Notes under the pieces: model-generated
Databases searched by the model: none
What the model saw: only the letters and a program-made list of their open reading frames with translations
What the model was told of the DNA's origin: nothing
Shown: in pieces, positions 25,438-61,572 of the stretch
How positions within the stretch are numbered: the stretch's first letter is position 1
How the letters are laid out: each line of letters begins with the position of its first letter
Made by a program: the position numbers and the translations under genes
Assembly: GCA_951406725.2 (NCBI GenBank)
Contig: OX597833.1
Span: forward strand, 31,682,001 to 31,746,000
Origin: Octopus vulgaris
Lineage: Eukaryota
DNA: 64,000 nt
Direction of reading: 5' to 3'

Positions 25438-27944
25438 TTAAATGATGATGATATATGCATGTGTATTTTATAGCTCCAAGCAGGGGTGAAATACATATGT
25501 TAATGCACATTGTAAGACATTTGAATTCTGAAACATTTCAACTTAATATCGATACCTGTTGTTACATGTTGCATGTTTATATAATCTAGTTACCTTTTGA
25601 ATACTTTTTGATTCTAGGTTGAAAAAGAGTCAGCTTGTTTCCTTTAAATACATCAAGTTTCCAGAAGCACAACTTTGTCCTGGTATGATTTACTGTAGTC
25701 TGTACCATGAGTTGTTAACATTATATTCTATTGATGATAATCATTGTCAACAATCAGTTGCTTCAGTGGAACCAATTTCAGCCTACCCACCAAAATATAC
25801 TCCACTCAGATTATTTTTGTGGGGAGTAATATATTTTGTTTGCTTTGTGCCATGTCGTACTAAATTTACCCAAGTAAAGCTATAGTTGCATGTGTTCCTT
25901 TACATTCAGAAGTTTTATCAAGTTGACTAACCAATCTCTAGTTGTCATTTTAAAATCTTAACCAACATATAAAGTGTATGCAATTCTGCAACAATATTAA
26001 TGACGTGACATCTCCAAATTGGGATGGGTTTTTTTTTCTTTTTTTAAGAATTGTATCAAACATTATTTGTAATTGTTCTTCTTGCATTGGTTGTTAAATT
26101 GCAATCTTTAATAATATCTAGAATAACATTCAAAACTTGAGTGATTTTTGCATTTTGTTCATTATCAATATTTGTCAATTTATTTGATTTGCATGGGTTA
26201 GTATACCCTATTTACCACTAAGTCACAACTGTATGTTTTCTTGCTGAAGATTTTCAACATGTTTAATTGTTCTGTGAAACAGTGCTGTCTGTTTTAAGTC
26301 CCTATAATATTATTAACCAGTATTATTAACTCTTGCCAGAAAGAGAATGAAATATTGATTCAGTATTTGGAACTGGATAGGAATTTGATCAAATTCTTTC
26401 ATTTACACCTAGTTTCCATATATTCTGAGATCTCCATTTATTTTCACTTAGAGGGATCTTTTTTTAAAAAGGCCTTCATTAATTAGTTTCCTCAGCTTTG
26501 TTATAACTATTAGCTTTATCTGTATGACCTTAAGACAATACTTAAAAACAAGTCTTAAAACCTCTTTGTCTGTCCTTGAACTATCAATACTCATCACATC
26601 CATATCAAGCAATTCGTGATTTTTGCTTTATTCAAATATAACAGTACTCCCAGCATCTATACTCTCATAAACTTCCATTTATTTGTTAAACTTGCCTAAA
26701 ATTATGATCCATCAAACTGATTTACTTTGAGATTACACTATCTTAATATGGACCGACCAGATTTGAATTACTATAGTTACCTGACTAGCAGTTGTCAACT
26801 GGCATTTTAAAGTCTACATTATTGAGTTTCACATTGATCACTGTCATTCTGTTTTACACCAATTTCATAAATACTTGCAAACTCTTCACTTTCAAATACC
26901 TCACTTTATTTTTGTGGATTTACATGCTGCCTTAAAAGTGTTTCTTTTTTAATATTTAAAACATTTTACTAAATGCAAATTATATTTGTTTCCATCAACA
27001 CTGATATCAAGAACATACAATATATCTTCTTTACTTTTTTATTTGAAAATGAGAAACCATTTCAAGTTGTTGAATGAATTCAGTACATGCATTAAACTTC
27101 AGGTAATGTCATATGCTTTTACACAATGCTCAGATGATTGCATATAATGAATCTCATTTGAAAATCCCCAGCACATTGTCAATTTAGTTTCAGTTTTTTC
27201 AAATTCTCAAAAGGAGCTAATCACATAAGCTCTAAGAATAATTTTGAATTAACATGTTCAAGTCATGCTTTATTAAATTTTTTAAAATAATTTAAAGTTT
27301 ATTAGGATTTTTTTCACCATAGTTTATCTTGGATATTCACCAATCTTTCAACAATTTCATATCCTCTGCACCTTAGCCACATGATTTTTTTTAGTTCCAA
27401 GTGTTAGACGATTCTACAAATATTTGGATAGTAAATTAACTTATATATAAATAATTTCTCTAACCAAAGTTTTCATAAAAGGTATGAAGAGTGGAATTAG
27501 GATGAGTAGGATTATTAACTCATCCTAAACCGCATTTCTTTTATCTGGACCAAATCTATTCAGAAGACACTTTTACTGCAGTTACTTCCCTTGCAATAAA
27601 CTGCGATTTGATACAGAAAAACGTATTTGGACATTAGTAACCAACACATATAAATATACACATACATTGCTTCTACGTTCGTTTTTCCATCGCATAGTGG
27701 TGCTTTATCTGATGGAAGTAATCTGTAGTTGGGCACATCGAAATTTTTATCATAGTTTTTTTTGTGTAATGGCAGGATGCCCTTCTTATCACTGGTCCCT
27801 CTTAAATTGTTGATACCGCAATGATTTTTTTTATTTGCTTTGTTCTTAAAATTTTTATAAGAATTATATAACAACCTCATCATTTCCATATCACACGAGA
27901 ACTTCAGTATTTATTTTGTTTCATTACATATATATATATAATTG

Positions 27945-29200
27945 ATGTACCCTAAGATTATCCTTTAGCTGTGCACATAATGTAAAAACGATTTTAGTAG
28001 GTAGGCCTACACCCAAGGCAGAGGCAGGATGCTCATGCAGGAGTAACATAACTTGTCCGCTGAACGACCACTGCAACATGGAGACAGCTGTATATGAGGC
28101 AGAGGTAGCAGCTACAGGACCCAATAGACAACCGAGGGTGCGGAATGGAAGGCCCCTTCAGAACCTACTTTAACAACCAAAAGTCCTCCTTCAACATCCC
28201 AGAAAGACACAATGCCACAACCCTAGCTAAGCACTTTTGGTCTTTGAAAAGAAGTACCACAGAGTACAGCATAAAGTGGAAGATCCTTGAGAAGTTCAAA
28301 CCGTACTTCAATAGCAGCAGGAAGTGCAGGTTATGCCTGGCTGAGAAGAGAGCAATTTTAAAGGGTACCCAGTGTCTGAAAGTTTACCTGAATAGCAGGA
28401 GTGAGGTGTTTAATCCTTGCCCACATGAAAGGAAGTACATCCTATTGTACGCAATATGAATGTAACCACAGGGCCTTGGCCTTCCACCAATGCTCAGCAC
28501 ACATCAATGCACACACACACACACCCTTATAAGGTGGGCATCTCACAAAATAGACTCTCCCACCACCCCCAACTTATACCCCTTCATTTTATCCCCACAC
28601 ATATATAGACCTCCCCATATACATACCACATGCTCACATAAAACCCACCACCACACGCTAACATAAACCCCCCACGACCTTATCCTCTACAGAAAGCAAA
28701 CACTGATGAACACAGCTATATATACCTACACTCCTGAAAAAATTATGCATGTTATACCACTACACATATCACACACCCCAACCCCCACAGTAGCACCACA
28801 CTTAATAATGCATACTTACACCACAAACACTTCAAGATAACTCTTGTCAGCCTCACTGCATATCCAACCAAGAGACATAACTCCTAACCTGGCCCTTTTT
28901 TGTTTCACCACCTCTTTCACAGTATCCACTGACCGGTTGTGTTAATCCACCTCCGACAATAAAGAGCAGTCACTACATTCCCTTCCATATTGGTTAACTC
29001 TGATAAGTGTAAGGTTATATAATCGGATTGTTACCTAACACTCCATTGTATACCTTGCACAAAACCAATCGGTAAGATCAGCCGTGATGGGCTAATAATA
29101 GTATATATTTTGGATAATATATGAATATAATTTGCCTGACACCTGAAACAAGGAACTTTTATTGTAGCTCTTAAAATATTCACATCTACTCTATTTAATC
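27945..29200 (+). mobile_element. Penelope-like element 3' fragment (GIY-YIG endonuclease and pseudo-LTR)
   Basis: LRLSFSC...CSCRSNITCPLNDHC...VYEAEV, then EGPFRTYFNNQKSSF...TTLAKHFWSLK...IKWKIL...CRLCLAEK...LNSRSEVFNPCPH. Degraded hammerhead-like motif at 28992-29083. Confidence 0.85.
28992..29083 (+). ncRNA. Degraded type I hammerhead ribozyme-like motif
   Basis: GGTTAACT-CTGATAA-GTGTAAGG...CCTTGCAC-AAAA-CCAATCGG-TA-AGATCAGCC. The helix layout is intact, but the core has G-to-A changes relative to CTGATGA and GAAA. Confidence 0.55.
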
Positions 29201-29929
29201 ACAATAATGAAGTATTCACAAGGAAATGTGCAAATAAAGCTGTATGACGTCCTTTACCATAATTTACAACACATTTCTGACTTTGTAGAAAGATTTCTAC
29301 CAGCAACATGGGCAATAGCAACCCTGAGAATGTTAGCAATTCTAAGATTCCTAACCATATTGGGTTCACATAATGTGTGACATATGATATTCAATGTTGA
29401 TTAACCTCAGCTCAACACATTGAGTAGACTACTGATTGAAAGTTTCAACTGTGATCAGGGCTAGATTAAGACCCAGAAGCCCTAAGATGTTTGTGTCCCC
29501 ATATATATGTAATTCAAAATATAAATAAGAGTAAATCGTGCAATATATTTTTATTTCTCAAAATGAAACAAAACTAACAGTAAGATGTAGTTTTGCCACC
29601 AATGATCAATAACAAATCTATCTTCAATCTGACTGACTACCGCTCTCATCAAGCCAACCTTTTTAAATAGATTTTCCAGGAGACACTAAATTTGTTATAT
29701 ATTCTACTATAAGTAGTACTAGCTTAAAAGCTGACTTTTAAACTAGCTCCTGCGAAGGCAAAGCTAATGAGAGCTAAATAGCATGACTATAATGTGTCTA
29801 TAATGACTATATGCCCTAGTGGTGTTAAATCAGTTTTAAAATACAGACAGTCCTAATCTGTCATTAGTTTCTTAGATATAATAAAACGTAATGTGAGCCC
29901 TGTTGGTAAAGCAACAGAGTGGGAGTGAG

Positions 29930-60280: not shown

Positions 60281-61356
60281 TTAATGTCTGTTTTCCATGT
60301 GGGCGAGGGTTGGATGGTTTGACTGAGGTCTGGAGAGCCAGCAGCTGCACCAGGATCCAGTCTGGTCTGGTATAATTTCTACAGCTAGTTGCACTTCCTA
60401 ATGCCAACTACTCTGAGAATGTAGTGGGCATTCTTTACGTTCCGCTGGCTCAGTAGCCAGTAAGGCAGGCCTGGCAACGATCACATTGGGATTTCTCTTT
60501 TTATGTGCCACCGGCACAGGATCCAGTGCAGCAGTCCTGGCATCAGTCACAGGTGGTTGGTGCTTTTTATGTGCCACAGGCACTGGAGCCTGTAAGGTAT
60601 GCCTGGCAACGAACATGTTCAAATGTTGCTTTTAAAGTGCCACTGGCATAGGAGCCAGTCAGCGAGGTACTAACATCGGTCACGATCAGTTGATGTCTTT
60701 TACATGCCACGAGCACAGTAGCCAGTCTTGGCAGACATGTCTCCATCCACATTTGGATGGTACCTTTGATGTGCCAGAAGGCACCAACCCCAACTATGAT
60801 ACTGGTTTTATTTGACTCAACAGGTCTTCTCATGCATATCACATAGCTGTCTTCATTCATATGTAACACATGGCCATACCAGTACAGGCATCTCTCTTGC
60901 ACATCACATTTGATGCCACTCATGCCCAACTTTTCTTCTAGGGCTCTTACACTCTGTCGTGTATGTACACTGACATTACACATCCAGCAGATCATACTAG
61001 CTTCATTTCTTTGAAGCCTACACAAATCGTCATCAGGCACGGCCCATGTTTCACTGCTGTGGAGCATGGCATCGTACAATCTACCTTTCTCTCTGAGCGA
61101 GATGCCCTTTTGTCATCAGTAGGGGTAGAAGCTATTCTTATTCTAGTTGTAATACTCTTTGAGCAGCCATTCCCACAACTGTCTTGTCTCCTACATAGTG
61201 GAAGCTATCAACTAATTCTAGTTTCTCACCCTAGCATGTGATGGAATTTGTTTTTTGAGAATCTGTGGTGTTTATTGCCCCTGTGCATCTGCCATACACG
61301 AAAGTTATCTTCCTGGTTAATATTGTTGCTGCACCTCTTATGTGTCCATAGCTTAT
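60281..61356 (-). mobile_element. Diverged RTE LINE 3' part
   Basis: ORF 60567-61079 (LHSSETWAV...RNEASMICWMCNVS...YWYGHVL) followed by RTE 3'UTR. Confidence 0.88.
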
Positions 61357-61492
61357 ACATTTATACATTTATACATATACATATATAACATATATATATA
61401 TATATATATATATATATATATATATATATTATGTTACATATGTGTATATATATATATACTTTATTTAAAAGCAGCAGAAATATAACAAAAGT

Positions 61493-61572
61493 TGTTACTC
61501 AGAGTTTCACGCTCCTGTTCAGCATTTTTTTTTTAACAAAACTGTCTGACGAACGGGAACGTAAAACTCTGA
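61493..61572. ncRNA. Inverted pair of partial minimal hammerhead-like motifs
   Basis: Plus strand: CTGT-CTGACGA-ACG-GGAA-CGT-AAAA-CTCTGA (truncated). Minus strand: ...CGT-GAAA-CTC-T-GAG-TA-ACA. Together they reconstruct a complete minimal type I motif. Confidence 0.55.

Follow-up and report, generated by a model that had tools for sequence, protein, structure and literature searches.

What are the roughly ten hammerhead-ribozyme-like motifs dispersed over a 64,000-nt stretch of the Octopus vulgaris genome, and what brought them there? The stretch (assembly GCA_951406725.2, contig OX597833.1, positions 31,682,001 to 31,746,000; all 64,000 nt are referred to here as the window) had been read in an earlier note, made from the letters alone, as hosting many families of short, non-coding retroelements that carry a ribozyme. 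Our analysis points, with a probability of about 0.82, to an explanation in two parts. Most of the motifs would be the 3′-end hammerheads of coding Penelope-like elements (PLEs), 5′-truncated and often inverted, and one family, designated C, is a non-coding tandem unit of 460–484 nt, likely moved in trans by PLEs as a retrozyme of the type without long terminal repeats (non-LTR retrozyme).

Hammerhead motifs in the window

(TA)n tracts and fragments of LINEs (long interspersed nuclear elements), as well as of transposases, are abundant across the window. A descriptor of the type I hammerhead gave seven matches in it, against means of 0.07 in dinucleotide shuffles of 300-nt blocks and 0.08 in shuffles of the whole window; the maximum was one, and none of the 150 shuffles in either set reached seven. 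The descriptor permitted C4, U3-A8 and one extra base at stem II. Because these relaxations were picked after the motifs had been inspected, the descriptor was re-run on the downstream flanks of 240 other loci, which together make up 240,000 nt. This returned 15 matches, and the same flanks shuffled eight times returned 0, 0, 1, 0, 0, 0, 0 and 0. The flanks adjoin other repeats, and three of the 15 matches are further copies of families already studied, so this rate is not a genome-wide density. Nine flanks (L005, L006, L028, L029, L032, L094, L147, L162 and L200) hold further hammerhead families unrelated to those of the window, among them three matches with C4 and one with U3-A8. A first descriptor, which tolerated two arbitrary deviations, was discarded: its 18 matches, obtained without a shuffle control, were mostly noise.

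The motifs are real on these counts, and six of the seven window matches are sites already noticed; the seventh (3067, minus strand) is new. The eight main sites had been placed at exact coordinates, and each proved to be a member of a repeat family with the hammerhead layout. Among the four weaker candidates, those at 41879 and 39296 are truncated copies of real families, and those at 41751 and 27704 fell away. The supposition that the families are unrelated was slightly overstated, as 57001 (family E) and 41879 (family E2) belong to sister families. Two hammerhead families had been overlooked, I (53128) and J (3028). In all, eleven hammerhead-family insertions lie within 64 kb, and the eleven families have the same layout with different helices, always at a short fixed distance from the 3′ end of the element. 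As the earlier note recognised, these are Penelope-type type I hammerheads with a short palindromic stem III, and the insertions land in (TA)n.

Coding parents of the hammerhead families

The families were searched for in the whole 2.8-Gb assembly of 227 contigs, where the first look gave candidate numbers, which are not copy numbers, of 1442 (A), 880 (B), 878 (C), 613 (D), 1155 (E), 719 (F) and 1708 (G). The best-scoring copies were fetched as a sample for each family. Coding sequence lies directly upstream, in sense, in 21 of 30 loci of E and again of F, and in 4 of 30 loci each of B, D and A; the A count includes the window copy, and one further A match belongs to another element. In the long copies the frames measure 730 aa for E, 505 aa for F, 367 and 230 aa for B, and 340 and 255 aa for D. 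Pfam identified GIY-YIG above the cut-off in family B, and RVT_1 below the cut-off in B (E = 8e-7) and D (3e-4). In A, B, D, E and F, one open reading frame (ORF) holding a reverse transcriptase (RT) plus, at its C-terminus, a GIY-YIG endonuclease (EN) was found upstream of the hammerhead-bearing pseudo-long terminal repeat (pLTR).

Because longer copies carry RT/GIY-YIG coding sequence upstream, the short window copies are best read as the 5′-truncated ends of coding elements. A, B, D, E and F are firmly linked to coding PLEs, and E2, G and H less so, with two to three loci each. When oriented, copies have a fixed 3′ end shortly beyond the cut site, usually abutting (TA)n, at +49 or +199 in E, +108 in F, +56 in B, +46 or +88 in I and +108 in G, and their 5′ ends are ragged and often inverted. 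The earlier expectation of many short non-coding retroelement families is borne out by family C (52129–52744) and fails for eight families with adjacent RT/GIY-YIG coding sequence; the supposed non-coding families would be mainly debris of coding elements. It had been correctly seen that GIY-YIG sequence stands beside only three motifs in this window.

Families A and F likely belong to the Hydra clade and B to the Neptune clade, a placement made from motifs. CxxC and CxH occur in both E and F; F has a CxCX5C linker in addition, E has DKT and no such linker, and B has a CX4CxxC linker. The Naiad clade was considered for A, E and F and rejected, as their EN is C-terminal and that of Naiad is described as N-terminal (PMC8557442). 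We also rejected family G as a palindromic mobile unit: the first query was itself palindromic, a one-arm query led to varied 5′ junctions, and longer copies exist. In family I (window 53028–53218; L360–L378) the non-coding sequence upstream extends over at least 660 nt and includes an internal duplication of ~230 bp, and there are two 3′ ends.

A non-coding tandem unit and its sister family

The first 30 C loci, corresponding to 27 insertions, all map entirely inside one unit of 460–484 nt. About 13 C insertions read through the same junction from the tail into the next hammerhead, and none exits the unit into an ORF. The 3′ ends gather around +142 or +270 relative to the cut site and run into (TA)n. 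The longest stop-free frame is 56 aa; none of the 30 loci has an ORF of its own, the sole coding match being a D copy, and comparison of C with PLE proteins gave no match.

An exact 26-nt motif from the C hammerhead has 284 matches in the genome and none in the control, a count that is a minimum for C, and many matches lie 480 nt apart among the first 100 places listed. Eight regions picked for this ~480-nt spacing revealed arrays of 7.6, 5.8 and 4.2 units (L414, L413 and L415, respectively) plus shorter ones. The descriptor is passed by 7 of 7 units in the first, 4 of 6 in the second and all 4 in the third. The arrays are bounded by (TA)n at both ends, except for two broken by LINEs, and several have inverted 5′ arms. 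A search with a variant motif gave three places, all of them C-type units without an ORF. One unit folded as a circle has a predicted energy of -124 kcal/mol with 68% of bases paired (z = -6.6 against 40 shuffles). Pieces of the unit occur in contigs of three sequencing runs that we guess to be RNA and of one other; strand, ends and circles are not readable from contigs. Family C is young. Because it consists of tandem units, each with a type I hammerhead and without coding capacity, it is retrozyme-like, and its sequence fits the genomic definition of a non-LTR retrozyme as worded in a 2026 preprint (Li, Clavereau & Pollet).

The sister family C2 was first found in a flank. Its unit of 492–497 nt is 65% identical to C, and it has 295 motif matches, a copy of 2.7 units, 3′ ends at +147 and +250, and one locus (L293) with three consecutive hammerhead units. 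No C2 locus among 30 has an ORF of its own in sense. Three adjacent stem I pairs differ on both sides between C and C2 in a compensatory manner. The hallmarks of PLE insertion, namely 5′ truncation, an inverted 5′ copy, fixed 3′ ends with an optional tail and a (TA)n target, are shared by C and C2.

Further observations concern the same units. Loci L408 and L409 represent a third C-type subfamily, 84–89% identical to C and likewise a tandem non-coding unit. The L293 unit of C2 has a 156-aa antisense stop-free frame that is not found in C and is probably due to chance. LINEs are inserted in C units at positions 351–372 (L412:2354–7643, L411:3252–4954 and 1–2757; also L427 and L435); their ORF2 of 1133 aa has the Pfam domains Exo_endo_phos, RVT_1 and zf-RVT, and we take them to be Tx1-like. 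Among the 24 best copies of the 3′ end of this LINE, four are followed by a C unit (junctions 351, 358, 369 and 369), two of these being the seeds, and about half of the 24 are head-to-tail tandems of the LINE itself. A site preference or co-mobilisation is possible.

Core and stem variants

With variants at positions 3/8, 4 and 9 permitted, the descriptor is passed by 25–30 of 30 copies in each of B, C, C2, D, E and F. The counts are 7 of 20 for E2, 12 of 18 for H, 18 of 20 for I and 3 of 8 for J, and two samples of G gave 8 of 30 and 16 of 30. Family A passes in 1 of 30 because of an internal loop in stem I; half of its copies (15 of 30) keep the core, GAAA and UH all intact. An altered G12 is seen in 11 of 30 A copies, as would be expected of neutral decay after insertion in an old family.

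The G10.1-C11.1 pair closes stem II in A, B, C2 and E2, and in D after a bulge. The base of stem II is instead G-U in E and A-U in G, and F has an extra U. Between E and E2, G-U pairs are changed to G-C in stem II, so that helix covariation, proposed earlier as a check on the motifs, was found both here and in stem I of C and C2.

Alternative explanations and opposing evidence

The explanation that survives best beside ours concerns the C arrays, which could be minisatellites that expanded locally through unequal crossover, each from a single pLTR-like insertion, with the hammerhead as a passive relic. Such a route has been proposed for vertebrate retrozymes (bioRxiv 10.64898/2026.07.22.740005), and hammerhead mutants are reported to leave insertion in vitro unaffected (PMC11167929). 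A few variants that two units within an array have in common, one in one array and two in another, would also suggest growth in place. Against it, the arrays are dispersed and have PLE-type boundaries in (TA)n at start and end; in some (L412, L416 and L417) both arms of an inversion carry more than one unit; and the stem I covariation between C and C2 argues against a relic. The variants themselves point the same way. Two units of the same array differ on average by 2.1 substitutions (21 pairs), and two from different arrays by 7.8 (150 pairs); one array has 13 differences common to all three units examined and no private substitution, and in three others the variants are mostly confined to a single unit (4, 5 and 4, versus 1, 2 and 0 that are partly shared). 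Copies of two passes offer very few differences for comparing shared private variants. We consider growth in place unlikely. The array evidence favours insertion of a multimer in one step; it fits both a circular template and a long linear RNA transcribed from a homogeneous source array, and does not tell the two apart.

The second alternative is that most of the families are independent short non-coding ribozyme retroelements. Most copies of B, D, A and G are indeed shorter than 400 nt and without coding sequence, none was found in 20 loci of I and 8 of J, and this description holds for C and C2. However, the copies extend upstream by continuously varying lengths, and the longest ones of A, B, D, E and F reach RT/EN; the 5′ ends are ragged, and no fixed short unit was found outside C and C2. 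The explanation is refuted for A, B, D, E and F, and as an account of most families it is highly improbable.

Chance matches in AT-rich, repeat-rich DNA, which the descriptor's relaxation after viewing and the Rfam and folding scores given below might suggest, account for 27704 and 41751, but chance is refuted for the main sites by the excess over shuffles in the window and in other loci and by the recurrence of one layout across eleven families, and hardly deserves consideration as a general explanation.

A number of observations nevertheless weigh against the reading that we prefer, in which truncated coding PLEs account for most motifs and PLE-moved retrozymes for family C. As regards the motifs, an Rfam scan of the window gave no hammerhead at threshold, the only match being HH9 at 44660–44726 with 23.5 bits (E = 0.22), below the gathering score of 52. 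Folding z-scores of single motifs are weak, at -0.8 to -1.4 for six of the seven; that of the 28992 motif is -4.5. C4 is present in all parsed copies of the young families E (30 of 30), F (29 of 29) and G (16 of 16), C9 in 23 of 25 D copies, and stem II of family C opens with a U-U mismatch; cores with C4 or C9 may cleave poorly. A U4C variant is described as much slower in vitro yet able to support viroid infectivity (PMC3088659).

As regards the coding parents, Pfam gave no match for the proteins of E, F and A or for the two EN frames of the window, and E, F and A were assigned as PLEs by motifs and by tblastn among themselves. The links of E2, H and G are few and run partly through inverted arms: coding sequence adjoins E2 in 2 of 20 loci and H in 2 of 18, and in 3 of 20 G loci RT pieces in inverted orientation are joined to the upstream part. 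Families I and J are without coding sequence, as noted above.

As regards family C, the 5′ ends of the copies show no accumulation at the cut site. Among 26 independent insertions found with a tail-only query, six start between -3 and +16 of the cut site; one start is compatible with the cut site itself, and three lie at +6/+7, where a short palindrome offers microhomology. Nor did an autonomous partner of C emerge, with no similarity in 317 other loci (1.05 Mb) among best-scoring copies; a rare long parent could be missed because only such copies were fetched. Finally, the covariation between C and C2 amounts to two lineages and three events.

Proposed mechanism

Following published PLE biochemistry, the GIY-YIG domain would nick AT-rich DNA, here (TA)n, and the RT would start downstream of the hammerhead, at either of two fixed positions, and copy back through it. 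Because the RT would usually stop early or switch strand, most insertions would retain the hammerhead and tail only and be dead on arrival. In the case of family C, the RNA copied in the same manner in trans would be a multimer or a circle of the unit, giving single insertions of 0.3–7.6 units. Cleavage by the hammerheads would take place mainly in tandem transcripts, where they could act as dimers.

A more specific version may be put forward tentatively. C and C2 might represent a long-lived cephalopod retrozyme lineage, in which a 480-nt RNA would be cleaved by its own hammerhead and closed into a circle. A Penelope RT would then go around this circle repeatedly within a single target-primed event, so that whole multimers of up to about eight units land in (TA)n with Penelope-type ends. 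We regard this as possible, though rather less probable than not.

Comparison with known systems

Numerous unrelated hammerhead families within one genome, seen for the most part as lone motifs in truncated copies, have been described in PLE pLTRs of metazoans (Cervera & de la Pena 2014, PMC4209133), and the octopus window copies match this published pattern of truncated PLE ends with hammerheads. The account given there includes the type I layout, the short palindromic stem III and opposite-strand pairs (100–700 bp apart), as well as the U3-A8 core variant and the extra base after A9. The octopus families differ from that account in the C4 of the young families, in the many motifs without G10.1-C11.1 and in stem II regions of up to 56 nt.

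Hydra clade PLEs are characterised by a CxCX5C linker, a DKT motif and insertion into (TA)n (Craig et al. 2021, PMC8557442). A C-terminal EN, (TA)n targets, 5′ truncation, an inverted 5′ copy and an optional tail are features that the octopus families have in common with the EN-bearing Hydra and Neptune elements of that study. Unlike these, the octopus families have two 3′ ends 40–150 nt apart, compared with a 30–40-bp tail there, and family E is without the Hydra-clade CxCX5C linker. For PAc, a Poseidon element from Anolis, the RT is reported to start at two fixed internal sites downstream of the hammerhead, and the targets to be AT-rich (Frangieh et al. 2024, PMC11167929). The octopus hammerheads are followed by two fixed 3′ ends, which match these start sites, and the octopus targets are AT-rich too. 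The PAc ORF is described as starting inside the hammerhead, with cleavage needing protein, whereas the C tail returns to the next hammerhead without an ORF.

C and C2 resemble animal non-LTR retrozymes as described by Cervera & de la Pena (2020, PMC7229834) and in the preprint of Li, Clavereau and Pollet: a non-coding tandem unit with one type I hammerhead, present as monomers to multimers, of low GC and with a strongly self-paired predicted fold. Their unit of 460–497 nt is just above the 150–450 bp given in PMC7229834, which also describes a U-U mismatch at the base of stem II, as in C, in axolotl HHR_Amex2, a weak monomer that cleaves better as a dimer. The PLE-type ends of the C arrays (two fixed 3′ ends, (TA)n, 5′ inversion) are not among the features drawn here from these retrozyme descriptions.

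Our literature search returned no description of octopus hammerheads or cephalopod retrozymes, although the supplements of PMC8557442 and PMC4209133 may list octopus elements, and nothing on non-autonomous Penelope-like elements at TA microsatellites. Thirty recently active Penelope families are reported in PMC13282606, in whose main text the word 'ribozyme' is absent.

Individual insertions and other features of the window

Family A occupies 27950–29129 (+) as an old 5′-truncated PLE, likely of the Hydra clade, with a decayed RT/EN end (frame 28109–28459). Its hammerhead at 28992–29083 (+) is degenerate, with G8 and G12 changed, in a family that has the full layout. Family H, at 39295–39583 (+), is a truncated fold-back of an inverted arm (39295–39349) and a sense part (39350–39583) that interrupts a decayed LINE frame; neither arm of this copy holds a complete hammerhead. 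Family E2 forms a single insertion at 41613–41952 (-), with the hammerhead cut within its core at 41952. The 41751 motif was rejected as a hammerhead, being the 3′ tail of this same insertion, and the motif at 27703–27755 (+) was rejected as a single-copy near-match whose only match in the genome is itself. Family B (44619–44913, both strands) is a fold-back of a PLE end, likely of the Neptune clade, with U3-A8 cores; its hammerhead at 44675–44719 (-) is intact and that at 44782–44826 (+) is weakened in stems II and III.

The partial family C copy lies at 52129–52744 (-), with its hammerhead at 52394–52450. Its sense part runs from 52564 to 52129 and ends at +270 in (TA)n, and its inverted arm (52565–52744) ends at +142, also in (TA)n. 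Family I follows 280 nt away at 53028–53218 (+), with a U3-A8 core hammerhead at 53128–53172 that is degenerate in this copy. Family D, at 54687–54913 (-), is the 3′ end of a coding PLE; its hammerhead at 54809–54853 has C9 and an extra base before stem II. Family E (56954–57516, -) is a young 3′ end that retains the EN end (57434–57514) and a C4-core hammerhead (57001–57085) and terminates in (TA)n. It abuts family F back to back at about 57516–57535. Family F (57535–58992, +) is a 5′-inverted PLE copy, likely of the Hydra clade, with an inverted arm at 57535–58013, an EN frame at 58010–58624 and a C4-core hammerhead at 58816–58881 (+). Family G (61455–61573, both strands) is a short fold-back of a PLE end, with the hammerhead site at 61491–61573 and both arms damaged or cut. 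Family J (3028–3073, -), outside the range covered earlier, is the hammerhead of an old family with 72–80% identity among copies. PLE copies thus cluster at shared (TA)n sites in the window, and likewise in L413.

Other features include an intact intronless histone H2A frame at 20900–21422 (+), with a match to the histone 3′ stem-loop at 21377–21422, and a decayed mariner transposase frame at 42502–43398 (Pfam Transposase_1). Two further decayed frames are presumably a Helitron-like helicase remnant (35256–36400, no Pfam match) and a Tc1-like remnant (32972–33280).

Discussion

The octopus motifs are known kinds in a new host. Their bulk is known biology, in that hammerhead-bearing PLE ends are scattered in truncated form over invertebrate genomes. 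The window nevertheless illustrates a high load of PLE hammerheads, in which most insertions are invisible to protein or Rfam annotation. Whether PLEs need cleavage in order to spread could be tested on the young families whose cores have C4 or C9.

Family C bears on how animal retrozymes move, by rolling-circle copying or by local expansion of tandem arrays. A young family with PLE-type ends on its arrays, a covarying sister family and a pool of young PLE candidates in the same genome make this question testable. If the tentative circular-template model were true, C and C2 would provide evidence, at the level of insertions, that animal retrozymes are non-autonomous PLEs that use a circular template, and not satellites grown in place.

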